The notes: generated by a model not told the origin, from the sequence alone. A stretch of DNA of 64,000 bases from Terriglobia bacterium (GCA_965206125.1 CBDBIN010000045.1:772531-836530); one strand, 5' to 3'; shown: positions 10,302 through 46,440, counted from the stretch's first letter. Made by a program: numbers and translations.

Positions 10302-11876
10302 CTACCTGCCGCCGCCGCTCGGATCCAGTACGGTGTTGTTGACGCAGGCCGTGGACCGGCAATCATGGGAGTTTTCCGAGCCCAGGGCCTCGAGCAGTTC
10401 GACGGTAGCCGGATGCAGGAGCGACTTTTCGCGCGGCCCGTTCGCCATGTCCGCCACGGTGTCTCCCATAGCATTGGGGGCTTCGGTCGCCGGTCGCGTT
10501 CCAGATAACCGACCCCGGGCCCTGGCCCTCACATCGCCGCCCTGAGCCACCAGGTACCTGATCAAATCATTATCGCCGACGTACGCCGCCCCGTGCAGCG
10601 GCGTGTAGGACCAATCGTCCTGGTGATGCACATCGGCACCCGCCTCTTCCACCAGATAGCGAGCGGCGGCCAGCCGTGAGTCGGGCAGAATATTCGAAGA
10701 TTGGTAGTCAAAACCGTAGCCCGTGACAACCATCAGCGGCGTCACGCCACCGGTGTTCGCGATAGTCGGGTTGGCTCCGTGGGCGGACAGCAGGCGCATC
10801 GCGACGATGTCGTGCGCTTGAGCGGCTCGCCAGAAGGCGGTGGCGCCGGCAGGGTCTATCCAGTCCCCACCGTACCGAAAAGTCCGGTACCACAGTCTCT
10901 TGCTCAGCCGGGCATTCACATCAGCGCCGCGGTCCAGCAGGTCGCTTACCAGGTCCAGATAGTCGGTCTTCTCTTCGCCCACGTCCGGCTGCGGATACCA
11001 CGTGTTGTTCCTCCATCGAATATCCACGACCGCGTAAAGCGGGGTCAGCCCATCGGCATTCATGACATTCACATCGGCACCGTTGTCGAGCAGGAACTTC
11101 GCGATGTCGAGGTTGGCGTTGATGATGGCTTCCGTCATCGGAGACGTCTGGTTCGCCGGGCTGAGGACGTTGACGTCGGCTCCACCCGCGACCAACTGGC
11201 GAATCGCATCCATATGACCGTCCCGGGCGCCGAAGTGCAGAGCTGTCAGCCCTCCGACGGGAAGAGTGGAACCCCCACGGCCCCGCCTGCCCGAGCTTCT
11301 GACCTCAGACACGTTCGTCGTGATGTCCGGGTCCGCGCCGTTATCGATCAGGACCTCGATCGTCGAGGCGCGATTCAGTGAGGCTGCGAACATCAGCGCT
11401 GTCTGTCCGTTGGTCACATCAGTTGCGTCGACGTCAGCGCCCTTTTCGACCAGCATCCGCACAGCTTCCGCGCTTCCGGAGGCCGCCGCGGTCATCAACA
11501 CGGTGGTTCCGTTCGTATTGGCCTCCGTCGCGCTGGCACCCGCATCCAGCAACGCACCGATGATGGGAGCGTTCCCGACCCTGGCCGCCATGGCAAGAGG
11601 CGTCATAGAGCCGATGCGGGTGGCGGCGGCGACGTCAGCACCCCGGTCGATCAGGAGTTCGACCAACTCGAGTTCGCCGTGGTAGGCCGCCCAATGGAGT
11701 GCCGTGCTCCCATCGCCCTGGGCGACGTTCACATCCGCGCCATCAGCCAGAAGTGTGCGCACCGCGTTGACATCGCCGCGCATCGCCGCATCGGCCAGGG
11801 GCGCGTCGTTGCTCGCCCCGGAAACTACCATCACGGTGACGAGCAGCCCAAGAAAGACGTATCCGAGTTTATTCAT
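10302..11876 (-). CDS. secreted ankyrin-repeat protein (module copy 1, third gene)
   Basis: 524 aa with a signal peptide and more than 10 ankyrin repeats (G.TALHWAAYHGELELVELLIDRGADVN...). The conserved C-terminal motif is GDTVADMANGP...LGSENSHDCRSTACVNNT. Confidence 0.85.
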   Translation of the reverse strand: MNKLGYVFLGLLVTVMVVSGASNDAPLADAAMRGDVNAVRTLLADGADVNVAQGDGSTALHWAAYHGELELVELLIDRGADVAAATRIGSMTPLAMAARVGNAPIIGALLDAGASATEANTNGTTVLMTAAASGSAEAVRMLVEKGADVDATDVTNGQTALMFAASLNRASTIEVLIDNGADPDITTNVSEVRSSGRRGRGGSTLPVGGLTALHFGARDGHMDAIRQLVAGGADVNVLSPANQTSPMTEAIINANLDIAKFLLDNGADVNVMNADGLTPLYAVVDIRWRNNTWYPQPDVGEEKTDYLDLVSDLLDRGADVNARLSKRLWYRTFRYGGDWIDPAGATAFWRAAQAHDIVAMRLLSAHGANPTIANTGGVTPLMVVTGYGFDYQSSNILPDSRLAAARYLVEEAGADVHHQDDWSYTPLHGAAYVGDNDLIRYLVAQGGDVRARARGRLSGTRPATEAPNAMGDTVADMANGPREKSLLHPATVELLEALGSENSHDCRSTACVNNTVLDPSGGGR

Positions 11877-11897
11877 GATTAGTTTCCCCTTCGCCGT

Positions 11898-13268
11898 TTA
11901 GATCGCAAGTACCCCGGTACTGTCGCCAATGTATTCCTGCTCAATCCCCAGCTTGCCAAGTATCCCCAGAAGGAGGTTCGACGTGGGCGTCTCATGAGCA
12001 GCCTTCACGTGTCGATTGCCCGAGAACTGTCCGTTGGCGTGACCCACGAGCAACATCGGAACGCGCTTGTGGGCATGAACGTTGGAGTCTCCCATGGGGC
12101 TGCCATACACGACCAGGGAGTGGTCCAGCAGGCTGCCATCGCCGTCAGGCGTATCCCTCAGTTTCTCCAGGAAGTACGTGAACACTTCCATGTGATACCG
12201 GTTGATCTTGGCGTACTCCGTTATCCCGCTCACCGATGATCCGTGATGCGACGCCGAGTGGAAAGGCGTGCTGTTGCCACTTTCGGCAAACACCCGGTTG
12301 CTCACGTCACGGCTGAGTTTGTGTGAGGTAACGCGGGTTACCTCGGACGAAAACGCGAGAACCTGCAGATCGAACATGATCTTGACGTGATCTTCCCAGG
12401 AGTCGGGCACACCGATCGGAGCGCTTGGCAACTCCCTGTGGACGCCACTGGCGTTGTACTGCTCGATTTGCTGGATGCGACGTTCGATCTCGCGCACGCT
12501 ATCGAGGTAGTCGTTCAGTCGGTTCCGGTCTCTCGTCCCGATATCCTGCCGCAAGCGATCGATTTCGAGCGTCACGCTGTCGAGAATGCTCTGGTTTGCC
12601 CTCCTGCGCGCCGCGCGAGCTTCGGGTGAGCCGCCGGCGCCGAACAGTTCCTCGAAAGCCATCCTGGGATCGATGATCATCGGCAGCGGAGTCGTGGGCG
12701 ACGACCAGCTGATCGAGTTCATGTAGACACAGCTGTAGTGGTAGCCGCAGTTACCTGAAGCGTCCAGGTTCTCGATACAGAGCTGAAGCGAAGGCAGAGG
12801 GGTATCCTGGCCAAACTCGTTGGCGTAGATCTGGTCGATCGACGTCCCACTCTGTACGTCCGAGCCCTCGGTCTGTTTCGGGTGCGCACCGGTCAGAAAT
12901 ACGGCGCTGGATCGAAAGTGGTCCGCACCCTCTTCCTCCGCGGTGTACGCTTCGGCCGGACGCTGGTCGGTGTGAGTGACCAGCGTGATGTAGTCCCGAA
13001 ACTGCTCGGCCGGTTCGAGGATCGTGCCGAATTCGAAATCGGACCCTTCGGTCGGGGGCATCCACATGTTCTGATCGATACCGTACTGGGTACTGCCCGC
13101 GCTTCCGTGCACCATCTCGAGACACGCCAGCTTGGTTCGAGGGTTGGCCGCGGTCTGACGCTGGGGCGTCTGAGCGGGAACCATCGATTCGAGCAGGGGC
13201 AACGACAGAACCGTGCCCACTCCCGTGAGAAACGTGCGTCGCGAAAGATGTTTCTTGGTCAAAAACAT
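11898..13268 (-). CDS. DUF1552 family Tat-exported protein (module copy 1, second gene)
   Basis: 456 aa. Twin-arginine signal SRRTFLTGVGTVLSLPLLESM. The conserved His-rich motif TPFHSASHH..AKINRYHM is shared by all four paralogs. Confidence 0.85.
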   Translation of the reverse strand: MFLTKKHLSRRTFLTGVGTVLSLPLLESMVPAQTPQRQTAANPRTKLACLEMVHGSAGSTQYGIDQNMWMPPTEGSDFEFGTILEPAEQFRDYITLVTHTDQRPAEAYTAEEEGADHFRSSAVFLTGAHPKQTEGSDVQSGTSIDQIYANEFGQDTPLPSLQLCIENLDASGNCGYHYSCVYMNSISWSSPTTPLPMIIDPRMAFEELFGAGGSPEARAARRRANQSILDSVTLEIDRLRQDIGTRDRNRLNDYLDSVREIERRIQQIEQYNASGVHRELPSAPIGVPDSWEDHVKIMFDLQVLAFSSEVTRVTSHKLSRDVSNRVFAESGNSTPFHSASHHGSSVSGITEYAKINRYHMEVFTYFLEKLRDTPDGDGSLLDHSLVVYGSPMGDSNVHAHKRVPMLLVGHANGQFSGNRHVKAAHETPTSNLLLGILGKLGIEQEYIGDSTGVLAI

Positions 13269-13301
13269 GGATCTCTGCTCCTTGTGATCTACGAGCTCTA
13301 A

Positions 13302-15710
13302 TTACTGCTGTTCCGCCGTCGGTATGTCGTCCGCCCTTCTCATCTGGAACGGAACGCTGTTTACGACTCCCTGGACGAACTCGGAAAAACGGTTGCCGTT
13401 GCCCGAGGCTTCTCGGGCGATCGACCGAATCGCTGGCATGTCGCGATAGTCCAGGACCCGGCCGACACCGTACTGCAGAAGATTCTCCGTAAAGGTCCCG
13501 ATGAACGCATCGGAATGATCCAGCATGGCCTGGCGCAGGCTGATCGGTCCGTCAAGTTCGGTCCCGTCGTACATCCTTGCCGACGGATCGATGAGGAACC
13601 CCCCATCGTTCTCGCGCCACTGTCCGATCGCGTCAAAGTTCTCGAGCGTCAGACCGATGGGGTCCATCATCTGGTGGCACGCCGCGCACGCGGGGTTTTC
13701 CCTGTGGTTCTCCAGCCGCTCCCTCACACTCCTCACGACCTGGTTGTCGACGGCCTCTTCGAGAGGCGGTACCACCGGGGGCGGGGGAGGAGGAGGCGAT
13801 CCGATCAGGACCTCCATCACATACTTGCCGCGCATGACCGGAGAGGTCCGGTTCGCCAGCGATGTGAGCGTCAGGACGCTGCCGTGCCCGAGCAGTCCAA
13901 ACCGGTTCGAATCTGTCAGGCTCACTCGCCGGAAACGGTTTCCAAGCACGTCGGGTATCCCGTAGTGCTTGGCGAGAATCTCATCGACGAACGTGTAATC
14001 CGCCGTCAGCAAGTCTGTAATGTTGCGATCCTCACGCAGAATGCTTTCAAACAGCATTTTCGTTTCACGGGTCATCGATTCCCCGAGATTCCGCGTGAAG
14101 TTGGGGAACACCAGAGACTCCGGGTCCGCTTCCTTGACTGTCTGCAGGCGCAGCCACTGGTACGCGAAGTTGTCCGCCAGGGCCGTCGCACGGTCATCGG
14201 CCAGCATGCGACCGACTTCCTGCTCAAGGATCGCCGGGTCCCGCAGTCGCTCCTCTGAGGCCAGTCTCAACAACCGATCGTCCGGCAGGCTGCTCCACAG
14301 GAAAAACGCGAGTCGCGAGGCCAGCTCCAGGTCGCTGATCCTGTAATTGGTACCGGGTCTCACGTTCGCCGGCACCTTTTCGAATCGAAACACGAACTCG
14401 GGGTGCGACAGGACGGCCTGCACAGCCATCTGAATGCCGCCCTCGAAATCTCCCTCTTCACGGCCGGCTCTGTAGTGGTTGATCAGGAACTCGACATCGT
14501 CATCGGTGATCGGCCGTCGGTACGCGTGACGTGCAAGGGTCGAAACGATCTGCTCGGCGCAGGGCAACTCTTCTGCGCTCGAAGACGGGGTGCAACTGAA
14601 TATCCTGAGACGGCTCGGCGTTTCCGACATGCCTGTCACGACGAAGGGGCCGGCGATCGTCAGCGTGTGCAGGTGGGGCAGTCCGATCAGACCGGGTACG
14701 GCCGCAGTGACGTCGACCATGGTCTGTTCGACCTGCCGGAACTGATCCTCGGTCGGCCCGTCGAATTTCTTGATGAACGCCGCCGCAATCCGGTGCTCAC
14801 CCGCCGTCACCGAGATGCGCTCGGTCGTCAGGACGTTCTCCAGTTCGCCGAGGGCCGGATCGATTTCAAAGATGGCCAACCGTGCTCCGTCTATCGAAAT
14901 CTCGATCTCCTGTCCCTGGAGGTTCTGGGGCAGGTTGCGGCCGAACAATTCGGTGATGAAGTCGTGGTAGAACGTCACCTTGAAGGTGTATTCCCCGTCG
15001 GCCGGGAAGTTGTAGACCACGGACGTCCCGCCGCGGGTCCCCAGCGGCGTGCCCTCGATGTGGCGCACCTGGTTGAAAACCTTCGGCACGGTGTACATGG
15101 ACATCGTGGGCGCGACCTCGGTATCGCCGACCGCCCGCCGGCTGATCTGGCTTGCCGCTCGCACATATCCCTGGACCAGAGCCGGGGTCACCGAAAGACT
15201 GTCGGCAATGTTGTCGAAGCCGCCGCTCATCTGGTCGGGAGGGAGAAGCGTCGACACATCCACGTCGAGGTCGAGCAGTTCTCGGACCGAATTGGCGTAC
15301 TCCGTCCTGTTCAGCCGGTGGAGTTCCGGTGCGCCCGCGTAGGGGTTGTCGATGGCGGAGCTGTCGACCCCCGATTCCAGCGCCCGGTAGAACGCCCTCG
15401 CGTCGGCGGCGTCGGGCCGGGGTATCCCCACTGGCGGCATCATGCCAGCCTTCAGCTTACGAATCACCGCCTCAGACTGCACAGCGTTCGTCCCCGGAGA
15501 GGCCAGATCCAACTCGGTCCATGAAAAGCCGCCGGCCCGGAGGTCGTCGTTGTGGCAACCCGCGCAATACTCGTCGACCAACGCCTGTTGTGAGGCCACC
15601 GACAGCGTCGACGTAGTCTGTCCAGAAACTGTCGCAGCCGGAATCAGCAACGCGAGGGCAAGGACGCCGGCACGAATGCAAAACGACTTCATCGAATCCC
15701 CTTTACGCAA
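13302..15710 (-). CDS. DUF1592/DUF1595/DUF1587/DUF1588-type (PSCyt/PSD domain) putative di-haem c-type cytochrome, secreted (module copy 1, first gene)
   Basis: 802 aa with a Sec signal peptide. The N-terminal CxxCH is EYCAGCHNDDL and the C-terminal CxxCH is ENPACAACHQMMDPIGL. A poly-Pro linker GSPPPPPPPVVPPLEE is present. The architecture is that of the Planctomycetes-type cytochrome that partners DUF1552 proteins. Confidence 0.85.
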   Translation of the reverse strand: MRKGDSMKSFCIRAGVLALALLIPAATVSGQTTSTLSVASQQALVDEYCAGCHNDDLRAGGFSWTELDLASPGTNAVQSEAVIRKLKAGMMPPVGIPRPDAADARAFYRALESGVDSSAIDNPYAGAPELHRLNRTEYANSVRELLDLDVDVSTLLPPDQMSGGFDNIADSLSVTPALVQGYVRAASQISRRAVGDTEVAPTMSMYTVPKVFNQVRHIEGTPLGTRGGTSVVYNFPADGEYTFKVTFYHDFITELFGRNLPQNLQGQEIEISIDGARLAIFEIDPALGELENVLTTERISVTAGEHRIAAAFIKKFDGPTEDQFRQVEQTMVDVTAAVPGLIGLPHLHTLTIAGPFVVTGMSETPSRLRIFSCTPSSSAEELPCAEQIVSTLARHAYRRPITDDDVEFLINHYRAGREEGDFEGGIQMAVQAVLSHPEFVFRFEKVPANVRPGTNYRISDLELASRLAFFLWSSLPDDRLLRLASEERLRDPAILEQEVGRMLADDRATALADNFAYQWLRLQTVKEADPESLVFPNFTRNLGESMTRETKMLFESILREDRNITDLLTADYTFVDEILAKHYGIPDVLGNRFRRVSLTDSNRFGLLGHGSVLTLTSLANRTSPVMRGKYVMEVLIGSPPPPPPPVVPPLEEAVDNQVVRSVRERLENHRENPACAACHQMMDPIGLTLENFDAIGQWRENDGGFLIDPSARMYDGTELDGPISLRQAMLDHSDAFIGTFTENLLQYGVGRVLDYRDMPAIRSIAREASGNGNRFSEFVQGVVNSVPFQMRRADDIPTAEQQ

Positions 15711-29793: not shown

Positions 29794-31164
29794 TCAGATC
29801 GAATACGTCGCCGTACTGTCGCCGACGCTTTCGACATCGACACCCAGGCTGTGCATCGTGGTCAGCAGCGCATTCGCCTGCGGCGCGTCATCAGCGGCCC
29901 GGACGTGGGTATTGCCCTGCACCCTTCCGGAAGCGTGACCCATCAGGACCACGGGAACACGCTTATGACCATGAATGTTGCCGTCTCCCATCGGGCTGCC
30001 GTAGAAGACCAGCGAGTGGTCGAGCAGGTTCCCGTCACCGTCGGGAGTGTTTTTGAGCTTGTCGATCAGATGCTTGAGCATCGTGACGTGATGGCGATTG
30101 ATCTTCGCGAAGTCCTCAATCATCTCGGGCTTCTGCTGGTGGTGCGAGGCCGAGTGGAACGGGGTATCGCTACCGCTCTCGGGGAATGTCCGCGGGCTGA
30201 CATCACGGGCCATCTTGAGGGTGGACACGCGAGTAACGTCCGCCGAGAAGGCCAGCACCTGCAGGTCGAACATGAGCTTGATGTGCTCTTCCCAGGAATC
30301 CGGCACGCCGACCGGCGCATCCGGCAATTCCCGTTCCGCCCCGGAGGCGTTGTATTCCTCGATCCTCTGGATTCGGCGTTCGATCTCCCGGACATTTTCA
30401 AGATAGTCATCGAGTCGATTCTGATCCGCCTGTCCGATATCGGTCCGAAGCCGAGCTACGGAGTTCGTGATGCGATCGAGGATGCTCCGGTTGACCTGCT
30501 GCCGGGCTACACGTTCTTCAGGGGTGCCGCCGGTTCCGAACAGCTCTTCGAACGCCAGGCGTGGGTCCTGAATCATCGGCAGCGGGGTCGTCGGCGACGC
30601 CCAGCTAAGCGTGTCCATGTAAACGCAGCTGTAGTGGTAGCCGCAGGCGCCGGAGGTGTCCTGGTTCTCAATGCTGAGGTTGATCGATGGCAGCGGTGTG
30701 TCCTGACCAAACTTCTGGGCGTACATCTGATCGATTGACGTTCCGTTGTAGACGTCTGACCCCTCGGTCTGCTTCGGGTGCGCTCCGGTCAGGAACACGG
30801 CGCTCGAACGAAAATGGTCGGCTCCGACCTCTTCCGCCGTCATAGGATCCGCCTGACCGCAATCCGTGTTGCTGATGATCGTCATGTAGTCGCGGTACGA
30901 CTCCAGTGGTTCGAGGATCTGGGTGACGTCGAAATCGTGGCCCTCGGCCGCGGGTGCCCAGAGGTTTTTCTCGGTCCCGTACATCGTGCTGCCCGAATTG
31001 CCGTGAACGATCTCAATGGCCGCGAAACGGCTCCTTGGAGCCGCGGCCGTCTGTGCCAGCGCGGTCCGTGCGGGCACCATGGATTCGAGCAAGGGCAAGG
31101 CAACAACTACCCCCGCGCCCTTTAGCATCGTTCGTCTGGAAATGTTCTTCCTGGTGATGAACAT
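29794..31164 (-). CDS. DUF1552 family Tat-exported protein (module copy 2)
   Basis: 456 aa. Tat signal SRRTMLKGAGVVVALPLLESM. TPFHSASHHQQ motif. Confidence 0.85.
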   Translation of the reverse strand: MFITRKNISRRTMLKGAGVVVALPLLESMVPARTALAQTAAAPRSRFAAIEIVHGNSGSTMYGTEKNLWAPAAEGHDFDVTQILEPLESYRDYMTIISNTDCGQADPMTAEEVGADHFRSSAVFLTGAHPKQTEGSDVYNGTSIDQMYAQKFGQDTPLPSINLSIENQDTSGACGYHYSCVYMDTLSWASPTTPLPMIQDPRLAFEELFGTGGTPEERVARQQVNRSILDRITNSVARLRTDIGQADQNRLDDYLENVREIERRIQRIEEYNASGAERELPDAPVGVPDSWEEHIKLMFDLQVLAFSADVTRVSTLKMARDVSPRTFPESGSDTPFHSASHHQQKPEMIEDFAKINRHHVTMLKHLIDKLKNTPDGDGNLLDHSLVFYGSPMGDGNIHGHKRVPVVLMGHASGRVQGNTHVRAADDAPQANALLTTMHSLGVDVESVGDSTATYSI

Positions 31165-35365: not shown

Positions 35366-36736
35366 TCAGATCGAAAACGTCCCAGTGCTGTCGCCGATGC
35401 TTTCCCTGTGCACCCCGAGGCTGTGCAGGACCGTCAGCAAAGCGTTGGCCTGCGGAGTATCCTCGGCGGCACGCACGTGCCGGTTGCCGGACACGGTCCC
35501 CGACGCATGACCGGCCAGGACGAACGGAATCCGCTTGTGGCCGTGGACATTGCTGTCGCCCATCGGACTGCCGTACAGGATGAGCGAGTGGTCCAGCAGG
35601 TTGCCGTCACCGTCCGGCGTATTCCGCAACTTGTCCAGAAAGTAGGTCAGGACATCGATATGGTGCCGGTTGATGAGGGCGAAGTCTTCGATCTGGGCAG
35701 GGTCCTGCTGGTGGTGTGACGCCGAGTGGAACGGTGCGGGGGTGCCGCTGTCCGGGTACGTCCGCTGACTGGTGTCGCGGCCAAGTTTCAGGGAGGACGC
35801 GCGAGTGACGTCCGCCGAGAAAGCCAGCGCCTGGAGGTCGTACATGATCTTGACGTGCTCCTCCCACGAATCAGGCACGCCGACCGGAGCGTTCGGCAGT
35901 TCTCTCTGCGCGCCCGACGCGTTGTACTCCTCGATCCTCTGAATCCGACGCTCGATCTCACGTACGTTCTCGAGATAATCGTCGAGCCGACTTCGGTCCA
36001 CGGGGTCCAGGTCGTTCCGCACGCGGGCCACCGAGGTTGTGATGCGGTCGAGGATGCTGCGATTGACTTCGCGCCTCGCGGCCCGCTCTGCCGGCGTGCC
36101 GCCCGATCCGAACAGTTGTTCGAAAGCCAGGCGCGGGTCCGGCGTCATCGGCAGCGGCGTCGTCGCGGACGACCAACTCAGAGTCTCCATGTAGACACAG
36201 CTGTAGTGGTAGCCGCAGGCGCCGGTGGTTTCCTGGTTCTCGATGCTGAGCTGAATCGAAGGGACCGGCGTATCCTGACCGAACTCCTGAGCGTAGAGTT
36301 GGTCGACCGACGGCCCGCAGTAAACGTCGGAACCCTCGGTCTGTTTCGGATGACCGCCGGTCAGGAACACCGCGCTCGACCGGAAATGATCGGCGCCGAC
36401 CTCCTCGGGCGTAAAGGGATCGGCCGGCCCGCAGTCGGTATGGGAGATGATCGTCGTGTAGTCGCGGAACGGTTCCATCGGTTCGAGGATCTGGCTGAAC
36501 TCGAAATCTCGGCCTTCCGCAGCCGGAGCCCAGAGGGCTTTTTCGGTCCCGTACATGGTGCTCCCGGCCGAACCATGGACGATCTCGATCCCGGCGAAGC
36601 GGCTTGGCGGAACCGCCGCCGTGTTTCTCAGCGGAGTCTGGGCGGGCACCATGGATTCCAGGAACGGCAGCGCGACCGCAACGCTGGCGCCATGTAGCAT
36701 CGTCCGTCTTGAAATGTGTTTCTTGGTGATAAACAT
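35366..36736 (-). CDS. DUF1552 family Tat-exported protein (module copy 3)
   Basis: 456 aa. Tat signal SRRTMLHGASVAVALPFLESM. APFHSASHHQQ motif. Confidence 0.85.
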   Translation of the reverse strand: MFITKKHISRRTMLHGASVAVALPFLESMVPAQTPLRNTAAVPPSRFAGIEIVHGSAGSTMYGTEKALWAPAAEGRDFEFSQILEPMEPFRDYTTIISHTDCGPADPFTPEEVGADHFRSSAVFLTGGHPKQTEGSDVYCGPSVDQLYAQEFGQDTPVPSIQLSIENQETTGACGYHYSCVYMETLSWSSATTPLPMTPDPRLAFEQLFGSGGTPAERAARREVNRSILDRITTSVARVRNDLDPVDRSRLDDYLENVREIERRIQRIEEYNASGAQRELPNAPVGVPDSWEEHVKIMYDLQALAFSADVTRASSLKLGRDTSQRTYPDSGTPAPFHSASHHQQDPAQIEDFALINRHHIDVLTYFLDKLRNTPDGDGNLLDHSLILYGSPMGDSNVHGHKRIPFVLAGHASGTVSGNRHVRAAEDTPQANALLTVLHSLGVHRESIGDSTGTFSI

Positions 36737-36782: not shown

Positions 36783-39230
36783 CTACCTGTCTTCCTGGTT
36801 CGCCTCGGACGCCTGCCTGAACTCGCGCATCTGGAACGGCGTACTGTTCACGATACCCATGACGAACGCCGAGAAACGGTTCTCCTCATCGGACGCCGCC
36901 CGCGCGATCGAGCGGACGGTCGGCATGTCCCTGTAATCGAGCACCCTCCCCAGACCGTAGGCCAGCAGGTTCTGGGTGAAGCTTCCGAGGAAGGCATCGG
37001 AACGCTTCACGAGCGCTTCGCGCAGGCTGACGGGACCGTCCAGGGGCGACCCGTCATACATTCGAGCGGACGGGTCGATCACGAAGCCACCGTCGTTCGG
37101 ACGCCAGCGGCCCACCGCATCGAAGTTCTCCAGGGTCAACCCGATCGGGTCCATGATCTGGTGGCAGGCGTTACACACAGGGTTCTCCCGGTGCGAGACC
37201 ATCCGTTCGCGCACCGTGCGCACTCGGTCGTTGTCGCCCGCTTCCTCAAATGGCGGTACGACGGGAGGAGGAAGCGGAGGGGGTGACCCAACCAAAACCT
37301 CAAGAACGTACTTGCCGCGCGCCACCGGCGACGTCCGGTTCGCCTGCGACGTCACGGTGAGAACGGCTCCCTTGCCGAGCAGCCCGAATCGGTTCGGATC
37401 GTCCAGCACGACGCGCCGGAATCGGTTCCCGATGACATTGGGAATCCCGTAGTGCCGTGCCAAAGCGCCATCCACGAACGTGTAGTCCGCGGTAATCAGA
37501 TCGAGTACGCTCCGGTCCTCTCTGGCGATGCTGTCGAACAGGAATTCGACCTCGCGTTTCATCGACCGCCCCAGGTTGCGCGTGTACTCCGGGAACAGCA
37601 CGCCCTCGGGATGCACTTCCTCGACACCGGTCAGACGCAGCCATTGCATCGCAAAGTTCGTCGCGAGCGTTTCCGAACGGGGATCCGCAAGCATACGTCG
37701 GACCTGCTGTTCGAGGACTCCTTCGTCCCGCAACCTTCCCTGACTGGCAATCTCGATCAGTTCATCGTCGGGGCCGGCGCTCCACAGGAAGTAGGACAGC
37801 CGAGTGGCCAGCTCGAGATCGCTGATCGGATAGCTGTCTCCGGGCTGAACTCCATCGGGAACCCGCTCGAACCGGAACACGAAATCGGGCATGGCGATGA
37901 GCGTCTGCACGGCGGTCCGGATTCCGTTCTCGAAGTCGCCGCTCCGGCGACCCAGGTCGTACATCTGCATCAACCCTTCCAGGTCCTCCGGCGTAGCCGG
38001 TCTCCGAAATGCCCGGGTGGCCAGGCTACTGATGATTTCGTAGGCGCAGTCCAGCTCTTCTTCCTCGTAAATCGGATAGCACGAGAAGATCTTGCCGCGG
38101 CTCGCCGTCTCCGAAACGCCAGTCACCTTCAGCGGTCCGGTAACCGTAAACGTCCGCAGGTGTGGCAGCATCGTGTTCGGGCTCTTCAACGCCCAGTCGA
38201 CGTTGACCAACGTCTGCTCCCAGAGCACGAACTGGTCTTCGACGGGGCCTTCAAACTTGGAGATGAAGGCGGCCGAAACCCGGTGCGCCCCGGCTTTGAC
38301 CGGGACCGGGCCCGTGTCCATGATCCCGTCTCCGAGCTCGTCAAACAGCGGATGGATGTCGAACAGTCCTACCCGCTCGCCGTCCACGGAAACCTCAAAC
38401 TGCTGGCCCTGGAGCGATTCCGGAAGATCCCTGCCGACAAGCTCCCCCATCGTGACGTACCAGAGTTGCGCCTGGAAGGAATAGTCGCCGTCTGCGGGGA
38501 AGTTGTGCATGACCGACGTGCCGCCACGGGTACCGAACGGCGTCCCTTCGATGTGTCGCATCTGGTTGACGACTTTCGGGACGTCGTACTGGGTCATGGT
38601 CTGGCCTGCCTCGGGGTCACCGACAGCCTGGCGCGCGATGGTCCCGGCCGCCCTGACGTACGCCTCCATGAGCCCGGGCGTTACGGTCAGCGCCTCGGAC
38701 ATGTTGTCGAAACCGCCGGTCTTGGCGTCCGGCGGCAAGAGGGCGGAAACATCGATGTCGACTGCCAGAAGGTCCCGGATCGAGTTGCGGTACTCCTTCC
38801 GGTTGATCCGGTGGAGGTCCGGCGCATCCGCATGCGGGGCCGCCGCCCGGTCGACACTCGCCGCGAGCGCCGCGGCAAACTGATTGATGGTGGCATCGTC
38901 GGGTCGGGGAGCGCCGGAGGGAGGCATCATGCCTGCCTTCAGCTTGCGTATGACTTCTTCGGCCTGTTCGGCATTCCTCGCGGGATTGGCCAGATCCAGT
39001 TCGCCCCATGAAAATCCGCCCGTCAGCAGCGCGTCGTTGTGGCAGTAAACGCAGTATTCGCCCACCAGCGCCCGTTGAGCTTCGAGAGACGGCAGACTGC
39101 CGCCGCCCTGGCCGTTGACACTCACGGCCAGATCGCCGCCGGCTGACACAAAGATGACGAACGCGAATAGGACGAACAGGGCTTGACGGAACAACGTCGA
39201 TCTCATCAAGAAAGCTCCCACATATCTCAC
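36783..39230 (-). CDS. DUF1592-type putative di-haem cytochrome c (module copy 3)
   Basis: 815 aa. EYCVYCHNDAL and ENPVCNACHQIMDPIGL motifs. SPPPLPPPVVPPFEE linker. Confidence 0.85.
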   Translation of the reverse strand: MRYVGAFLMRSTLFRQALFVLFAFVIFVSAGGDLAVSVNGQGGGSLPSLEAQRALVGEYCVYCHNDALLTGGFSWGELDLANPARNAEQAEEVIRKLKAGMMPPSGAPRPDDATINQFAAALAASVDRAAAPHADAPDLHRINRKEYRNSIRDLLAVDIDVSALLPPDAKTGGFDNMSEALTVTPGLMEAYVRAAGTIARQAVGDPEAGQTMTQYDVPKVVNQMRHIEGTPFGTRGGTSVMHNFPADGDYSFQAQLWYVTMGELVGRDLPESLQGQQFEVSVDGERVGLFDIHPLFDELGDGIMDTGPVPVKAGAHRVSAAFISKFEGPVEDQFVLWEQTLVNVDWALKSPNTMLPHLRTFTVTGPLKVTGVSETASRGKIFSCYPIYEEEELDCAYEIISSLATRAFRRPATPEDLEGLMQMYDLGRRSGDFENGIRTAVQTLIAMPDFVFRFERVPDGVQPGDSYPISDLELATRLSYFLWSAGPDDELIEIASQGRLRDEGVLEQQVRRMLADPRSETLATNFAMQWLRLTGVEEVHPEGVLFPEYTRNLGRSMKREVEFLFDSIAREDRSVLDLITADYTFVDGALARHYGIPNVIGNRFRRVVLDDPNRFGLLGKGAVLTVTSQANRTSPVARGKYVLEVLVGSPPPLPPPVVPPFEEAGDNDRVRTVRERMVSHRENPVCNACHQIMDPIGLTLENFDAVGRWRPNDGGFVIDPSARMYDGSPLDGPVSLREALVKRSDAFLGSFTQNLLAYGLGRVLDYRDMPTVRSIARAASDEENRFSAFVMGIVNSTPFQMREFRQASEANQEDR

Positions 39231-41056: not shown

Positions 41057-43522
41057 ATGCCAACAGTCAGAAGAGCCACTGGGTTGTCGCTCTGCCTGGT
41101 TCTGCTGGTCTTCGTCCACGAGCACGCCGCCGCAACCGAAACAAGTCCGCCGGGGGGCCCCCGGACCCTCACATCCGAACCGCAGAACGCAACGTCCCCG
41201 AGCGAGTTCATCGGTGAACACTGCCTCGCCTGCCACAACGAAGCACTCCTCACCGGAGGGCTGACACTCCAGGACATCGATACCGACGACGTCGCCGCCA
41301 ACACGGACATCTGGGAGAAAGTGCTCTTCAAGCTCGGGACGGGTCAAATGCCGCCGATGGGGATGCCACGGCCCGATCCTGCAAGTACCCGCGCCATCGT
41401 GTCGTGGCTCGAAACCTCGCTCGACCGCGCGGCCGAGGCGAACCCCGATCCCGGTCGGGTCGGCGTCCACCGTCTGAACCAGACCGAGTATACGAACGCC
41501 ATCCGGGATCTGCTTGCGCTCGAGATCAACGGGAAATCGCTCCTGTTGCCCGACGAGGCGGATTCTGGCTTCGACAACGTCGCGGCCAGCCTCACGATGT
41601 CGCCGGCACACCTGGAACGCTACATGTCGGCGGCCCGCAAGATCAGCCGGCTCGCCGTGGGCGACCCGACCATCGGTGCCGTTCCGGCCTTCGAAGTGCA
41701 CCAGGTATCCGGACTCCTGGTTCAGGACAACCGGGTCAGCGAGGACCTGCCGTTCGGCTCCCGCGGCGGCACGGCGATCCGGCATCATTTTCCGCTGGAT
41801 GGAGAGTACGTCATTCGGGTGCGCCTCAGGCGGCAGATCTACGACTACATCGTCGGCATGGGCTCGGCCCAAAAACTCGACATCCGGGTCGACGGAAAGC
41901 GCGTTGCGAGGTTCATCGTCGGCGGTGCGGCGCCGGGCGTCGCCGGCCCGTTGACGTGGGTCGGAGAGATCGTCGGAGAAACCGCGTGGGAGCTGTACAT
42001 GCACGACGCGGATGACGACCTGGAAATCCGTGTACCCGTCGAGGCAGGAACGCGGACGGTAGCAGTGTCCTTCGTCGACAGTCCTCGGGAACCGGAAGGG
42101 TTCCCCCAACCGGTGATGGAGGAAAGGGATTTCGGCCGAATCTTCGATGAACAATACGACGGCTACGCGGCCGTGGATACGGTCGCCATCGGCGGGCCGT
42201 ACCTCGCGGAAGGGCCGGGGGACACACCGAGCCGTCGGCGAGTGTTCGTCTGCCGCCCGGCGAGCGTCGAGGACGAGGCGCCGTGCGCCCGAACGATCCT
42301 GTCAACGCTTGCCGGCCGCGCGTACCGCAGGCCGGCAACCGACCGGGAAATCGGGACCTTGATGGACTTCTACGAGATTGGACAGCGCCAGGGAGACTTC
42401 GAGGCCGGGATACAGTCGGCAATCGAAAGGCTCCTGGTCAGCTTTAACTTCTTGTTCCGCATCGAGGCCGATCCGGCTGATCTGGCCCCGGGAACGGTCT
42501 ACAGATTGAGCGACGTGGACCTGGCTTCCCGCCTGTCGTTCTTCCTGTGGAGCAGCATCCCGGACGAGGAACTTCTGGACCGGGCAGCCGCCGGCGAACT
42601 CCACGATCCCGAGGTTCTCGAAAATCAGGTACGACGGATGCTGGCCGATCCCCGGTCGAGGAATCTCGTCGACAATTTCTCGGGCCAGTGGCTCAACGTG
42701 CGCAAGGCCAATACGTGGCAGCCAGACCCCGACGGGTTCCCGTTCTTCGAAGAAAACCTGCGGCAGGCCATCCTGGCGGAAACGGAGCTTTTCATCGACA
42801 GCCAACTTCGCGGGGACCGGAGCGTAGTGGAAATGTTGAGCGCCGACTACTCGTTCGTCAACGAGCGACTGGCCAAGCACTACGGACTACCCGGCATATA
42901 CGGAGAGCGTTTCCGTAGGGTGAAGTTCGACGACGGGCGGCGCGGTGGCCTGCTGGGCCAGGGCAGCATCCTGATGGTGACCTCTTATCCGGACCGCACG
43001 ACGCCGGTGATGCGGGGCCTGTGGTTGCTCGACAACATGCTGGGAATGCCGCCTCCGCCGCCGCCTGCCAACGTGCCGGACCTGGAGGGCAGCACGGAGG
43101 ACGGCCGCACCCTGTCGATACGGGAGCAGATGGCACGTCACGCGGAAAATCCCTCCTGCGCGATCTGCCACGTAAGGATGGACCCTCTTGGCTTCGCGCT
43201 CGAGAACTTCGATGCGGTCGGCCGGTATCGCACTGAGGCCGACGGCATTCCGATCGACGCGTCCACAGTTTTCACCGACGGCACGACGATCGACGGCATC
43301 GATGGGGTCCGGAGATTCCTGTTGGCCCATCGTAAGGATTTCGTCAAGAGCCTCACCGGAAGACTTCTGACATTCGCCCTCGGTCGCAGGGTCGAATACT
43401 CCGACCACCCGGCCATCCGCAAGATTCTGCGGGACGCCGCCGACACCAACTACCGGTGGTCGTCCATCATTCTGGGAATCGTAAACAGCACTCCGTTTCA
43501 GATGAGGAGAACAGCGTCATGA
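41057..43522 (+). CDS. DUF1592-type putative di-haem cytochrome c (module copy 4, most divergent)
   Basis: 821 aa. EHCLACHNEAL and ENPSCAICHVRMDPLGFALENFD motifs. MPPPPPPANVPDLEG linker. The stop TGA overlaps the next gene's ATG (ATGA). Confidence 0.85.
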   Translation: MPTVRRATGLSLCLVLLVFVHEHAAATETSPPGGPRTLTSEPQNATSPSEFIGEHCLACHNEALLTGGLTLQDIDTDDVAANTDIWEKVLFKLGTGQMPPMGMPRPDPASTRAIVSWLETSLDRAAEANPDPGRVGVHRLNQTEYTNAIRDLLALEINGKSLLLPDEADSGFDNVAASLTMSPAHLERYMSAARKISRLAVGDPTIGAVPAFEVHQVSGLLVQDNRVSEDLPFGSRGGTAIRHHFPLDGEYVIRVRLRRQIYDYIVGMGSAQKLDIRVDGKRVARFIVGGAAPGVAGPLTWVGEIVGETAWELYMHDADDDLEIRVPVEAGTRTVAVSFVDSPREPEGFPQPVMEERDFGRIFDEQYDGYAAVDTVAIGGPYLAEGPGDTPSRRRVFVCRPASVEDEAPCARTILSTLAGRAYRRPATDREIGTLMDFYEIGQRQGDFEAGIQSAIERLLVSFNFLFRIEADPADLAPGTVYRLSDVDLASRLSFFLWSSIPDEELLDRAAAGELHDPEVLENQVRRMLADPRSRNLVDNFSGQWLNVRKANTWQPDPDGFPFFEENLRQAILAETELFIDSQLRGDRSVVEMLSADYSFVNERLAKHYGLPGIYGERFRRVKFDDGRRGGLLGQGSILMVTSYPDRTTPVMRGLWLLDNMLGMPPPPPPANVPDLEGSTEDGRTLSIREQMARHAENPSCAICHVRMDPLGFALENFDAVGRYRTEADGIPIDASTVFTDGTTIDGIDGVRRFLLAHRKDFVKSLTGRLLTFALGRRVEYSDHPAIRKILRDAADTNYRWSSIILGIVNSTPFQMRRTAS

Positions 43523-44856
43523 TCATCACAAAGAAGGCCATCTCTCGCCGCACTATGCTGCGTGGCATCGGCGCAACGCTGGCGTTGCCGCTGCTGGATG
43601 CCATGGTGCCGCCGTTGACTGCACTGGCACAGACCCCTGCCCGGAGCACGATCCGCTTCGGCGCGGTTTACATCCCCAACGGCGTGATACCTGGTCTCTG
43701 GGTTCCCCCGACCGAAGGCTTGGGGTTCGAGTTCTCGCCCACCCTCGAGCCTCTGGAGCCGTTCCGGGATCACCTCCTCGTCTTAAGCGGGCTCGACAGC
43801 CTGCCACCGCCGCCCGAGGGCGCGCCCAGCTATCCGCACGCGAAGGCCAGCACAAAGTTCCTGACGGACGTGTTCCCGCACCGCGAGCTGCGGGCGGGGA
43901 TTTCGATGGACCAGATCGCAGCGAACTTCATCGGGCAGGACACGCCTCTGCCGTCACTGGAACTCTCCCTGGAGTCGGTGGATGCCGGCGCAACTTGCGA
44001 CTACGGGAGCTGCGTGTACACCGGTACGATTTCCTGGGCCGGACCAACGTCGCCGTTGCCCATGGAGACCGACCCGGCCGCCACGTTCGAACGGCTTTTC
44101 GGCGAGGACACTACGGATCCAGTGGCCCGGCGCGCCAGCCTCGAGCGGAAAGGCAGCATTCTCGACTCGCTGCTCGGTGAGGTTGCCGACATACGCAAAA
44201 GGGTCGGGCCGGACGATGAGAACAAGATATCCGGATATCTCGAGAACATCCGAGACGTCGAGCGGCGCATAGAAAAAGCGACTGCCGAAGACATCGACCT
44301 TCCCGCCGTGGCCCGGCCTGCCGGCATTCCGACAGCGTTTGCAGATTATGCGAAGTTGATGTTCGACCTGCAGGTACTGGCATACCAGGGAGACGTCACA
44401 CGGGTGATGACCTTCATGCTCGGCCGGGAATTCAGCGGCCGGACCTATCCCGAGATCGGTGTGCCCGACGCGCATCACCCGATCTCGCATCACCGAAACC
44501 AGCCGGAACGGATGGATCGGTGCGCCAGGATCAACCACTACCACGTCACGCAGTTCAAGTATTACCTCGAGAAGCTGGCTGCCACGCCGGACGGCGATCA
44601 GTCCCTTCTCGACCAGGTTGCGATCGTCTACGGTGGGGGCATGAGCGAAGGCAACGGCCATCGTCCCGAGAACCTGCCGATCGTGCTGGCCGGCGGCGGC
44701 GCAGGCCAGCTCAAGGGCGGGCGCCACATCAAGTATCCGAAGGGTACGCCGCTGGCGAACCTGCACATGACGCTCCTGGACAAACTCGGTGCGCCGGTCG
44801 AGAGCATGGGCGACAGTACGGGCATGCTCGACCTCGATGCAGTGTCAGGAGAGTAG
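43519..44856 (+). CDS. DUF1552 family Tat-exported protein (module copy 4)
   Basis: The start is taken at MIITKKAISRRTMLRGIGATLALPLLDAM, where ATGA overlaps the upstream stop. The motif HHPISHHRNQ...ARINHYHV is present. The ORF-track start at 43456 is an in-frame upstream extension. Confidence 0.85.
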   Translation: MIITKKAISRRTMLRGIGATLALPLLDAMVPPLTALAQTPARSTIRFGAVYIPNGVIPGLWVPPTEGLGFEFSPTLEPLEPFRDHLLVLSGLDSLPPPPEGAPSYPHAKASTKFLTDVFPHRELRAGISMDQIAANFIGQDTPLPSLELSLESVDAGATCDYGSCVYTGTISWAGPTSPLPMETDPAATFERLFGEDTTDPVARRASLERKGSILDSLLGEVADIRKRVGPDDENKISGYLENIRDVERRIEKATAEDIDLPAVARPAGIPTAFADYAKLMFDLQVLAYQGDVTRVMTFMLGREFSGRTYPEIGVPDAHHPISHHRNQPERMDRCARINHYHVTQFKYYLEKLAATPDGDQSLLDQVAIVYGGGMSEGNGHRPENLPIVLAGGGAGQLKGGRHIKYPKGTPLANLHMTLLDKLGAPVESMGDSTGMLDLDAVSGE

Positions 44857-44859
44857 GTA

Positions 44860-46440
44860 TTGATTGGCACGGTAAAGGCGGTCGAACGACCGGATTTGAG
44901 GCAAGGCAATATGCCACATGTGGATAGAGGTGTCTGTCGCATTCTCCTATCCACGGCCCTCGTGCTGTTGTCCGCCGGCTTCGCACAGGCTCAGTTGGTG
45001 GAAGCCGTCAAGCGGAACGACGTGTCTGGGGTACGGACCCTGCTCGCCGACGAGGTCGATGTGAATCAGACCGCGGGCGATGGAACGACGGCGCTGCACT
45101 GGGCAGCCTACCGGGCTGATTTGGACACGCTCGACCTGTTGATTGCCGCGGGGGCAAACGTCAACGCGGCCAATGACCTTCGGATCACGCCACTCGCCCT
45201 GGCCAGTGCCCACCCGGACGCGGCAATTGTGGAAAGATTGCTCGTTTCGGGGGCCGTTCCAAACGCCGCAAGCGAAGCAGGAATGACCCCGCTGATGGAG
45301 GCCTCACGGACGGGCAACCTCGATGGGGTGCTCGCACTGCTGGCATATGGAGCGGATGTGAACGCGCGAGAGAGTTCGCGCGGTCAGACTGCTTTGATGT
45401 GGGCAGTGTCGCAGAAACACTCGGAAGTCGTCCGCTCGCTACTCGAACACGGCGCCGACGTCGGCGCGCGTTCCCTGACACTTATTAGGATGGTCAAGCT
45501 GGACCGCGGCGGCGGCGGAAGACGGTCGCCCGAGGTTGCGACCCCAATCGAGACGGGGGGAAGCACGCCGTTGGTGTTCGCCGCCCGGGTCGGCGATGTT
45601 GAATCTGCCCGGCTCCTTCTGGAGGCGGAGGCAAACGCCAACGACATTGCGGCCGACGGCCACTCGGCTCTGGTTATGGCAGCATTCGCGGACCACCCGG
45701 ATGTCGTCGAAGTACTGCTCGAAGCCGGTGCGAACCCCGATAGTTTTGGCGGGGGATACACGGCGCTGCATGCCGCCGCGCTGCGGGGCAACCTCGGGAC
45801 TGTCAACCTGCTCCTAGCCGGGGGTGCGGATCCTAATCTCCCCCTCATCAAGGGTTCCCGGGTCAATCGATTCGGCATTCAGTGGGCACTGTCCGACGGG
45901 CTCGTTGGTGCGACGCCACTGTTGATCGCCGCCTCATACCTCGAAGTTGAGCTCGTGCGCGCCCTAGCCGCCGGTGGAGCCAATCTCATGGCCGCCATGC
46001 CGAACGGGACCACGCCGCTCCTGGCGGCGGCTGGAATCCGGGTCGACGTGGTGACTCGCCCGATAGATCAGGAGAGAGCCGGGGATACGAATACCGGGTA
46101 CCGAAACCTCCCGCTCGAAGAGAGCCGCATCCTCCAGGCTGTCGAAGCGCTACTCGACGCGAGCGCTGACGTCAACGGCGCCAACAAGGCCGGTGACACG
46201 GCACTGCACGCCGCGACCGGTGGCGCCCGCCTTTCCGTTATTCAGTTGCTCGCCGACCGAGGAGCAGACCTCAACGCCCAGAACCAGAACGGACAGACTC
46301 CCCTGTCACTGACGACTGGAAGAGGAGGCGGACGGGGACGGGCGGGAGGAGGGGGCCGTGGTGGCCGTGGCGGTCGAGGCCCTTCGCCCGAACAACAAGC
46401 AGCCGGCGAACTCCTCCGAAAACTGGGTGCGACGGACTGA
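44860..46440 (+). CDS. secreted ankyrin-repeat protein with a Gly/Arg-rich C-terminal tail (module copy 4)
   Basis: Ankyrin repeats (GTTALHWAAYRADLDTLDLLIAAGANVN...). The C-terminus TGRGGGRGRAGGGGRGGRGGRGPSPEQQAAGELLRKLGATD replaces the Cys motif of copies 1-3. An alternative start lies at MPHVDRG (44911). Confidence 0.8.
   Translation: MIGTVKAVERPDLRQGNMPHVDRGVCRILLSTALVLLSAGFAQAQLVEAVKRNDVSGVRTLLADEVDVNQTAGDGTTALHWAAYRADLDTLDLLIAAGANVNAANDLRITPLALASAHPDAAIVERLLVSGAVPNAASEAGMTPLMEASRTGNLDGVLALLAYGADVNARESSRGQTALMWAVSQKHSEVVRSLLEHGADVGARSLTLIRMVKLDRGGGGRRSPEVATPIETGGSTPLVFAARVGDVESARLLLEAEANANDIAADGHSALVMAAFADHPDVVEVLLEAGANPDSFGGGYTALHAAALRGNLGTVNLLLAGGADPNLPLIKGSRVNRFGIQWALSDGLVGATPLLIAASYLEVELVRALAAGGANLMAAMPNGTTPLLAAAGIRVDVVTRPIDQERAGDTNTGYRNLPLEESRILQAVEALLDASADVNGANKAGDTALHAATGGARLSVIQLLADRGADLNAQNQNGQTPLSLTTGRGGGRGRAGGGGRGGRGGRGPSPEQQAAGELLRKLGATD

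Follow-up and report, generated by a model that had tools for sequence, protein, structure and literature searches.

The PSCyt3/PSD domain families (DUF1592, DUF1588, DUF1595, DUF1587 and DUF1585) were defined on Rhodopirellula baltica. Together with DUF1552 proteins, proteins of the DUF1592 type ('planctomycete-specific cytochromes') belong to the function-unknown families that have expanded most in Planctomycetes, Verrucomicrobia and Acidobacteriota, phyla that dominate soils and matter for carbon turnover. To our knowledge, no mechanism has been proposed for either family since its definition. A sister pair consists of a PSCyt1/PSCyt2/PSD1 (DUF1549/DUF1553) multidomain protein with haem motifs, followed by DUF1501, a Tat-signal protein of the alkaline-phosphatase/sulfatase clan; it is massively paralogous, its function is unknown, and we know of no ankyrin partner for it. 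In the Sox system, the cytochrome c SoxXA, the Tat-exported dimetal hydrolase SoxB and the carrier SoxYZ carry out periplasmic thiosulfate oxidation. The adjacency of a DUF1592-type cytochrome and DUF1552 was noted in Planctomycetes and Verrucomicrobia (He et al. 2017, PMC5615132). A secreted protein of Cellvibrio japonicus, Cbp2D, combines the c-type cytochrome domain X183 with DUF1587/PSD3 and a carbohydrate-binding module (CBM), and was proposed as electron donor to LPMOs (PMC8981238).

The locus described here lies in a window of 64,000 nucleotides (the whole stretch of DNA analysed) and holds four modules within 36 kb of an acidobacterial genome, each reading A (cytochrome), B (Tat protein) and C (ankyrin protein) in the direction of transcription. 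As in the PSCyt3/PSD and DUF1552 pair, to which A and B fully belong by their Pfam scores, a cytochrome is followed in the same order by a Tat-exported protein. Unlike in that pair, a long ankyrin protein with a signal peptide is fixed downstream and co-diverges with A and B, the modules form tandem arrays, and the host belongs to the Acidobacteriota. Pfam families of the DUF1549/DUF1553/DUF1501 system were absent from the window, and none of the Sox families was matched by the twelve module proteins; a c-type cytochrome, a Tat-exported putative metallohydrolase and a third, non-catalytic protein would resemble Sox by analogy of logic only. Like Cbp2D, A is a secreted multidomain protein with cytochrome c, PSD3 and a CBM-like domain, whereas Cbp2D lacks the PSD4/PSD5/PSCyt3/PSD2 block, the DUF1552 partner and the ankyrin protein, and its acceptor is a copper LPMO. 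No description of the trio was found in full-text literature searches, and the searched papers held no account of the ankyrin partner, an alkaline-phosphatase fold of DUF1552 or a CBM-like sandwich in A.

We put at roughly 0.5 the probability that every module is an operon whose three extracytoplasmic products act jointly as one periplasmic enzyme system. Most likely, the trio is a periplasmic three-subunit metalloenzyme system tied to the respiratory chain. The preliminary description had suggested a dedicated, uncharacterised periplasmic redox or scaffold system; the present results support it, and it withstood the refuting conditions that it had set for itself, with the term redox drawn from the two haem motifs of A.

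Four copies of a three-gene module

All 12 open reading frames were recovered where the preliminary description had placed them, and Pfam and motif searches detected in every module the makeup it had claimed (a protein of about 800 aa with two CxxCH motifs, a Tat-exported DUF1552 protein and an ankyrin protein with a signal peptide). The genes are as follows:

Module 1, A1: 13302..15710, minus strand; 802-aa exported protein, predicted di-haem
Module 1, B1: 11898..13268, minus strand; 456 aa, Tat signal, DUF1552/HXXSHH, modelled alkaline-phosphatase-superfamily fold
Module 1, C1: 10302..11876, minus strand; 524-aa ankyrin protein with signal peptide, about 10 detectable repeats (Pfam, alignments, repeat count)
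Module 2, A2: 36783..39230, minus strand; 815 aa, CxxCH at residues 60 and 686 (Pfam)
Module 2, B2: 35366..36736, minus strand; 456 aa, Tat motif (Pfam E 3e-79)
Module 2, C2: 33643..35265, minus strand; 540-aa ankyrin protein (Pfam)
Module 3, A3: 31222..33606, minus strand; 794 aa, CxxCH at residues 37 and 665 (Pfam)
Module 3, B3: 29794..31164, minus strand; 456 aa, Tat motif (Pfam, motif search)
Module 3, C3: 28109..29770, minus strand; 553-aa ankyrin protein as listed, likely start at an internal ATG near 29707 (Pfam, alignment)
Module 4, A4: 41057..43522, plus strand; 821 aa, divergent lineage, CxxCH at residues 56 and 701 (Pfam)
Module 4, B4: 43519..44856, plus strand; 445 aa from ATG 43519, listed ORF start 43456 (Pfam)
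Module 4, C4: 44860..46440, plus strand; 526-aa ankyrin protein, 13 detectable repeats (Pfam, repeat count)

Intergenic gaps inside the modules measure 21-100 bp; in module 4, A4 and B4 share an ATGA, and 3 bp separate B4 from C4. The ATG at 43519 is the most likely start of B4 (445 aa), as it forms the ATGA overlap with the A4 stop and is preceded by a GAGGAG ribosome-binding site. Internal ATG codons are probably the true starts of C3 and C2, whose N-termini would then read MFGK... Since C2 ends 36 bp from the start of A3, modules 2 and 3 are probably one six-gene transcription unit. A promoter and terminator scan of 27.5-47 kb gave counts not above those of shuffled sequence. One promoter-like site upstream of A4 (40964-40993) was given no weight.

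Cytochrome A and the Tat-exported protein B

The domains PSD3, PSD5, PSD4, PSCyt3 and PSD2 were found in this order in all four A proteins, each above its Pfam gathering score (57-159 bits, cut-offs 23-34; E 1e-15 to 1e-46), which by this domain test places them in the DUF1592-type PSCyt3/PSD multidomain family (PF07626, PF07637, PF07631, PF07627 and PF07624). A1 runs from an N-terminal class-I-like cytochrome c domain through PSD3, a CBM6/35/36-like beta-sandwich, PSD5, PSD4 and PSCyt3 to PSD2. Pfam cytochrome c matches to the N-terminal domain stayed below the gathering score in all four proteins. The sandwich is contained in a confident structure model of A and could be purely structural. 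Exactly two CxxCH motifs occur per A protein. The one inside PSCyt3 (residue 675 in A1, 665 in A3, 686 in A2 and 701 in A4) is invariant in 115 homologues and at least 97% conserved in 128, and both motifs, as well as M91-P-P after the first, are invariant in the 115 A sequences; from these motifs, two c-type haems are predicted in A.

B1-B4 were assigned to DUF1552/HXXSHH (PF07586) with 267-291 bits against a cut-off of 30 (E 1e-79 to 1e-87). All four carry the twin-arginine motif SRRT[FM]L at the N-terminus and are predicted to be exported by Tat, the Pfam TAT_signal match of B3 lying just under the gathering score (20.9 vs 22.7). Across the families, a twin-arginine motif was present in 110 of 120 B homologues, in one of 120 A and in none of 120 C homologues, while 84% of the A family and 88% of the C family have strongly hydrophobic N-termini.

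Structure modelling of B indicated the core alpha/beta fold of the alkaline-phosphatase superfamily, with low confidence at residues 102-140 and 168-188, and the modelled fold matched hydrolases and transferases only. Identity to enzymes of this superfamily is 7-13%, with no sequence-level signal. These enzymes are hydrolases or transferases and not redox enzymes, and we know of no precedent among them for a haem partner such as the dedicated cytochrome that sets B apart. Their invariant residues are Asp plus Ser/Thr/formylglycine, whereas those of B are mostly His (H117, H337-x-x-S-H341-H342, H359 and H398), with H337, S340, H341 and H342 forming the H-x-x-S-H-H motif. No canonical Ser/Thr/Cys-x-Pro-x-Arg nucleophile motif is found among the family-wide invariant residues, and the residue after beta-1 differs between B1-3 and B4, i.e. 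it is not conserved. Unlike NPP/ENPP, LtaS/EptA/MCR-1, type I sulfatases and PafA, B carries a long inserted coiled coil (residues ~215-273). B4 lacks the 8-residue HGSAGSTx loop of B1-B3.

Comparing the A1 and B1 sequences with PDB chains returned nothing meaningful, and a profile of 118 B sequences matched the PDB in the coiled-coil insertion only, to unrelated helical proteins. Alignment of the B profile with Pseudomonas aeruginosa arylsulfatase (1HDH; the sequence used is identical save for the formylglycine position) using hhalign gave a probability of 0.07. As neither search yielded a residue-level alignment, the active site was mapped from the order of secondary-structure elements, which would place H117 at the nucleophile position. 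The stretch H117-x3-S121-x3-L-T-G may correspond to the sulfatase C-x-P-x-R-x3-L-T-G helix, a lead to which hhalign gave no support.

In the proposed mechanism, B would be the catalytic subunit, exported folded via Tat, with one or two metal ions, loaded ahead of export, most likely bound by its His-rich invariant residues. A would leave the cytoplasm by Sec and be fitted with its two c-type haems in the periplasm. The N-terminal cytochrome c domain of A (CxxCH ... MPP) may pass electrons to or from the respiratory chain or cytochromes in solution, the CBM6/35/36-like sandwich may bind a (glycan-like) substrate, and the large all-alpha PSD5-PSD4-PSCyt3-PSD2 domain would hold the second haem and dock B. 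To the gene content, motif-level export signals, folds, strict co-linearity, co-evolution and ancient paralogy established in this analysis, we thus add complex formation, metal binding, electron transfer and a substrate class, all of which we infer.

The genes around the modules in other genomes bear on this proposal. TonB-dependent-type outer-membrane proteins are encoded directly upstream of A in ~20 loci; PQQ dehydrogenases and further c-type cytochromes, among them the product of gene D with its one CxxCH, are recurrent neighbours. These neighbours fit periplasmic uptake and redox chemistry. Genes for an amidohydrolase, creatininase or amidase are also repeatedly found in the vicinity. 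The recurrent accessory genes (TonB-type outer-membrane protein, D and NHL propeller) are all absent from the window studied here, which counts against the proposal. D is covered by neither Pfam nor NCBIfam models, and NCBIfam also lacks models of A and B.

The uptake and hydrolase genes, the CBM-like domain of A and the modelled fold of B would also suit non-redox hydrolysis, with B a phosphodiesterase- or sulfatase-like metallo-hydrolase acting on an imported organic ester, A binding or anchoring, its haems structural or sensory, and C accessory. The three invariant motifs of 115 A sequences (CxxCH twice and the ligand motif Met-Pro-Pro), the cytochromes c and PQQ dehydrogenases recurring beside the modules and the lack of a canonical nucleophile motif among the invariant residues of B all speak against it, and we regard it as unlikely.

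The ankyrin protein C and its association with A and B

C1-C4 all hit the Pfam ankyrin families (E ~1e-57 to 1e-63; 1e-37 to 1e-63 over the models Ank, Ank_2, Ank_3, Ank_4 and Ank_5), with 10-13 detectable repeats each and an N-terminal hydrophobic signal in all four. C1 has conserved insertions outside the ANK repeats, and its C-terminus bears a Cys pair; both this pair and the WYPxP insertion are present in C1-C3 and missing from C4. In the proposed mechanism, C would be a Sec-exported solenoid of 10-13 repeats with family-specific insertions. It would join the Tat-exported B to the Sec-exported A, as an assembly factor or as a scaffold in stoichiometric amounts, or else stabilise the complex.

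The ankyrin gene truly belongs to the module, as the preliminary description had held. In related genomes, the gene that immediately follows B is C in 88 of 90 loci of the B1-3 type and in 37 of 48 of the B4 type; among the 11 exceptions of the latter, C is divergently upstream of A in four and elsewhere in the locus in two. A is upstream of B in every locus of both types (79/79 and 42/42), and in one locus (L078, 8411-12661) C and the next A form a single ORF. A few distant B4-like loci have A and B without any C nearby, which means that the pair does not need C everywhere. The closest related genomes are a Terriglobia bacterium and Vicinamibacterales and Bryobacterales MAGs, and the trio spans free-living bacterial lineages of soil, freshwater and sea.

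Ankyrin genes next to haem-enzyme genes are known from AnkB-KatB of Pseudomonas aeruginosa, where the ankyrin gene is needed for full activity. In Campylobacter, Cj1386, described as cytoplasmic, is required for haem delivery to the catalase KatA (PMC11442138). In both cases, as a likeness to the trio, the ankyrin gene directly follows that of a haem protein, which depends on it for full activity; however, Cj1386 and AnkB are small (<200 aa, few repeats) and serve a b-haem catalase, while the partners of C are a c-type cytochrome and a Tat enzyme. At 524-553 aa, and with no catalase gene in the window or in related loci, C is not of this small catalase-adjacent type.

The case of Cj1386, in which a haem enzyme depends on an ankyrin protein (PMC11442138), like that of AnkB, raises the alternative that C is a transient periplasmic maturation factor, for haem or metal trafficking or as a folding chaperone, and that A and B alone are the working enzyme. 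The pairs without C in distant relatives, the report of an ankyrin-free pair from Verrucomicrobia (PMC5615132) and the faster evolution of C agree with such a role. C is, however, three times larger than catalase-associated ankyrins, has 10-13 repeats with strongly conserved specific insertions, and co-diverges one-to-one with each A-B paralogue; a general chaperone would need no private copy per module. We consider this explanation doubtful.

It is very improbable that the C proteins are secreted effectors of the kind known from Legionella, Coxiella or Wolbachia, directed against eukaryotic hosts or prey, and lie beside A and B by chance. Ankyrin repeats are enriched in host-associated bacteria (PMC3932732), and C resembles Dot/Icm ankyrin effectors in NCBIfam, but far below threshold: the best equivalog score reaches 116 bits where 600 are required, every NCBIfam score falls short of its cut-off by a factor of 5-20, and the weak likeness reflects shared repeats. 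Moreover, C has Sec-type N-termini and no type IV signal context, and it is strictly adjacent to, and co-evolves with, two periplasmic proteins in free-living lineages.

Age of the copies and significance

Protein identities confirmed the earlier ranking of the copies, with 2 and 3 closest (A 72%, B 77%, C 63%), copy 1 intermediate (59-61%, 64-65% and 52% to copies 2 or 3) and copy 4 most divergent (41-43%, 44-45% and 33-36% to the others); C thus diverges faster than A and B. Congruence of the ankyrin genes with A and B was found at three levels: all three genes in the window gave the single topology ((2,3),1),4; the best matches of A, B and C from each window module sit in one orthologous module elsewhere; and distance matrices from 99 complete modules correlated at 0.93-0.95 (Mantel p 0.001).

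The tandem of modules 2 and 3 is kept in other Acidobacteriota, including three independent long-read genomes (L010, L012 and L014), module 1 has its own orthologues elsewhere, and module 4 is a separate deep lineage. The four copies are ancient paralogues. The successive duplications of the preliminary description stand, while its four-fold local amplification makes the event sound too recent. At the DNA level the modules are 66-72% identical, and their longest common exact word has 31 nt, which excludes chance or duplication by assembly. An assembly or binning artefact (a collapsed or duplicated repeat, or a chimera) has a negligible probability given this divergence, the orthologues of each module, the recurring tandem and the even G+C content over the region, and no evidence favouring it was found, although the window comes from an uncultured organism.

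Under the preferred reading of a joint periplasmic enzyme system, the many paralogous modules per genome may be substrate-specific versions, comparable to sulfatase or polysaccharide-utilisation paralogues. The locus offers three handles on these families, i.e. the modelled fold of B with its His-rich site, the CBM-like domain in A and the strictly co-inherited ankyrin partner, the last of which implies a three-protein complex. With these handles, the system can be tested directly through co-expression, metal analysis and the prediction of complexes. It would also be unusual for a bacterial ankyrin protein to do housekeeping work in the periplasm instead of acting on a host.

A further and rather unlikely step is that A-B-C is an unrecognised class of periplasmic redox metalloenzyme, in which the nucleophile of B would be swapped for a His-ligated metal, A would be a private two-haem electron donor and the ankyrin protein an obligatory third subunit, with the paralogues forming a major overlooked family. 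If so, the dozens of modules in Acidobacteriota and the ankyrin-less pairs of Planctomycetes and Verrucomicrobia would be major overlooked extracytoplasmic enzymes of oxidative catabolism, a family comparable in scope to sulfatases or polysaccharide-utilisation loci.

Module genes and their proteins

The twelve open reading frames that the preliminary description had arranged as four paralogous three-gene modules were all found at their coordinates (12/12). Start positions were revised for B4, which begins at ATG 43519, overlaps the A4 stop in an ATGA and is preceded by a GAGGAG site, and probably for C2 and C3, whose translation likely starts at internal ATG codons. Genes carry the number of their module (M1-M4).

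10302-15710 (-): M1
28109-39230 (-): M3 and M2
41057-46440 (+): M4

The four A proteins (794-821 aa) matched PSD3, PSD5, PSD4, PSCyt3 and PSD2 well over the Pfam gathering scores, with a weak N-terminal cytochrome c match, and each contained exactly two CxxCH motifs. The structure model of A was confident (pLDDT 87.4, pTM 0.87). Residues 38-120 form a small helical cytochrome c-like domain with invariant C49, C52, H53 and M91-P-P, residues 130-194 correspond to PSD3, and residues 365-800 form an all-alpha block (PSD5, PSD4, PSCyt3 and PSD2) that holds the second of the invariant CxxCH motifs and a cysteine pair (C373/C384), likewise invariant. No counterpart of this block was found among solved structures.

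The four B proteins matched DUF1552/HXXSHH (Pfam, E 1e-79 to 1e-87), and all carried SRRT[FM]L near the N-terminus. In an alignment of 183 B sequences that spans both deep lineages, conservation reached at least 97% at, among other columns, the twin arginines, S340, several Asp/Asn and six histidines (H117, H337, H341, H342, H359 and H398). B1-3 and B4 differ at the residue after the first strand, which binds metal in the classical members of the superfamily, and an eight-residue loop at this place is missing from B4. B may have retained the active-site location of its superfamily, with a putative histidine-rich metal site and without an evident Ser/Thr/formylglycine nucleophile; cofactor loading in the cytoplasm would fit its Tat export. 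A and B both belong fully to Pfam families that were defined on Rhodopirellula.

In each of the four C proteins, 10-13 ankyrin repeats were detectable. Their family keeps two non-repeat insertions, W..TWYP.P...E.T.YL and LW.R.FR...DW, and a C-terminal GDT.ADMANGP motif and a Cys-x4-Cys pair; of these features, the first insertion and the cysteine pair are missing from C4. A profile of the insertion alone retrieved 231 clusters at 50% identity (E<=1e-10), so that C represents a distinct, sizeable ankyrin family.

Strongly hydrophobic N-termini without a Tat motif were found in 88% of C and 84% of A homologues, and a Tat motif in 110/120 B homologues. Judged from these signals, all three proteins would be expected in the periplasm, A and C via Sec and B, folded, via Tat. 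Cytochromes of the c type require Sec export.

Linkage and common descent of the three genes

Searching with C1 brought up ankyrin proteins by the thousand; the top 120 all proved to be relatives over the full length (520-590 aa, identity 48-98%), and the named organisms among these were Vicinamibacterales. Three relatives were checked on long contigs, where the gene order was A-B-C each time and another module frequently lay in the vicinity. The aligned sequences of B1-B4 were next used to scan a single genome of each species and yielded 79 loci, nearly all from Acidobacteriota MAGs ('Terriglobia', Vicinamibacterales, Bryobacterales/Solibacteraceae, Marinacidobacterales). All six-frame ORFs were scored against HMMs built on the window A, B and C proteins. 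A was immediately 5' of B in 79/79 cases having enough DNA, and C immediately 3' of B in 88/90. The two exceptions were a frameshifted locus (L079) and L078, where C and the next A share one open frame. This frame (8411-12661, 1417 codons) joins ankyrin C (aa 20-561) to the A of the next module (aa 634-1405), through either a natural fusion of the two genes or an indel error of a long-read MAG.

Scanning metagenomes with the divergent B4 yielded 80 loci (53-80% identity), with A upstream of B in 42/42 and C immediately 3' of B in 37/48. C was relocated within the locus in six more, mostly to a divergent position ahead of A (C- A+ B+), and five loci had no C. Since the linkage of C outlasts rearrangement, it is good evidence for functional coupling with A-B, and the ankyrin gene proved integral to the module, as first proposed.

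Between modules of the window, protein identity was highest for copies 2 and 3 (A 72%, B 77%, C 63%), intermediate for copy 1 (~60%, ~64% and ~52%) and low for copy 4 (~42%, ~44% and ~35%), and the trees from pairwise identities were identical for the three families. An assembly duplication is effectively excluded, as had been argued, because module-to-module DNA identity is 66-72%, no exact word longer than 31 nt is shared and G+C is flat over the region.

For every window module, A, B and C found their closest matches in one and the same module of one foreign locus. M1 matched L005/L006, and in the tandem pairs of L010, L012 and L014 the first module was matched by M2 and the second by M3, so that the M2-M3 tandem is older than the split from these genomes. 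M4 reached at most 46% to anything in the first locus set and had its own orthologues, up to 80%, in metagenomes. Over 99 complete modules, the distance matrices of the three families were correlated (pairwise r = 0.93-0.95, Mantel p 0.001), values inflated by shared species history and two deep clades but still consistent with a trio inherited and duplicated as a unit. The four copies are not a recent local amplification: related complete genomes hold at least five or six modules each (e.g. OZ253536.1 and OZ252023.1, which recur in several loci), and with their separate orthologues the window copies are retained ancient paralogues.

Neighbouring genes

Recurrent neighbours were surveyed in 160 related loci (examples below in each locus's own coordinates).

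TonB-dependent-type outer-membrane protein (CarboxypepD_reg + Plug + OMP_b-brl_4), directly upstream of A on the same strand, ~20 loci: L047 1275-4550; L009 1299-4499; L043 442-4539; L122 1263-4292; L002 3224-6049
NHL-repeat six-bladed beta-propeller proteins, 26 loci of the M4 lineage, convergent with C or directly 3' of B where C sits upstream: L159 8336-9580 and 12057-13187; L100 9850-10845; L118 3234-4304
Gene D, directly 3' of C, ~18 loci, encoding a protein of 423-436 aa with a signal peptide, one conserved CxxCH and no Pfam or NCBIfam family: L001 11695-12966; L002 11680-12990; L004 11810-13081

None of the three occurs in the window. Further cytochromes c, PQQ dehydrogenases, creatininase-family proteins and a Tat-signal glyoxalase-fold protein also recurred. 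Adjacency of the TonB-type gene suggests an uptake step linked to the module, and the neighbours together are compatible with outer-membrane substrate uptake and periplasmic redox chemistry, without pinpointing the substrate.

The window genes between modules are unrelated (RecQ, DUF1028, HbpS-like, CotH-DUF4956-VTC, M16 peptidase, glyoxalase, amidase, methyltransferase, RibA/RibD). The following were observed:

7429-9051 (+), 9097-10038 (+) and 46513-47205 (+), the last just 3' of C4: ORFs of 230-540 aa without a Pfam match, which may not be genuine genes, given the high G+C of the genome
17654-19369 (+), between M1 and M3: DUF1028, also near the module in L002, then an HbpS-like (haem-degrading/GlcG-type) protein
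19449-22365 (-): CotH kinase-like/DUF4956/VTC-domain trio, apparently a conserved unit of its own with no relation to the modules
25416-26129, ~2 kb from M3: glyoxalase/VOC homologue; in M1 orthologues two tandem copies lie directly 3' of C (L005 10005-11926; L006 10009-11953, with a Tat signal in L006)
39492-40913 (-), between M2 and M4, 5' of A2 on its strand and in divergent orientation to A4: 473-aa methyltransferase with a weak carnosine N-methyltransferase-like match, not met as a recurrent neighbour in other loci

A putative periplasmic enzyme system

A-B adjacency was already noted in Verrucomicrobia, with the function stated as unknown (PMC5615132). Cbp2D of Cellvibrio, which combines cytochrome c, DUF1587 and CBMs, was the only experimentally studied protein found in the literature searched to share a domain with A, and a role in supplying LPMOs with electrons has been proposed for it (PMC8981238). 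In that literature, covering part of the journals, no paper was found on the ankyrin partner, the DUF1552 fold or the CBM-like domain of A. The A-B pair itself is already catalogued.

We propose that A, B and C would form a periplasmic three-protein enzyme system, in which B may be the metal-dependent catalytic subunit and A its private two-haem electron-transfer and substrate-binding partner. The main rival for this pair is a purely hydrolytic system with non-redox haems. C would be a paralogue-specific scaffold or assembly factor joining a Tat-exported with a Sec-exported protein; its main rival role, as a transient chaperone, would resemble that of small ankyrin proteins beside catalases, such as Cj1386 (PMC11442138). 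A host effector role for C is effectively excluded. Under the proposed enzyme system, multiple modules per genome could be versions for different substrates. The analysis establishes the genes with their signals, folds, linkage and co-evolution, and from these a complex, bound metal, electron flow and a substrate are inferred.

The preliminary interpretation was correct in outline, and the finding is real and well delimited: a phylum dominant in soils has a conserved, widespread unit of three genes, an ankyrin protein of bacteria turns out to be a constant component of a periplasmic operon, and structural assignments for both DUF partners make experiments possible.
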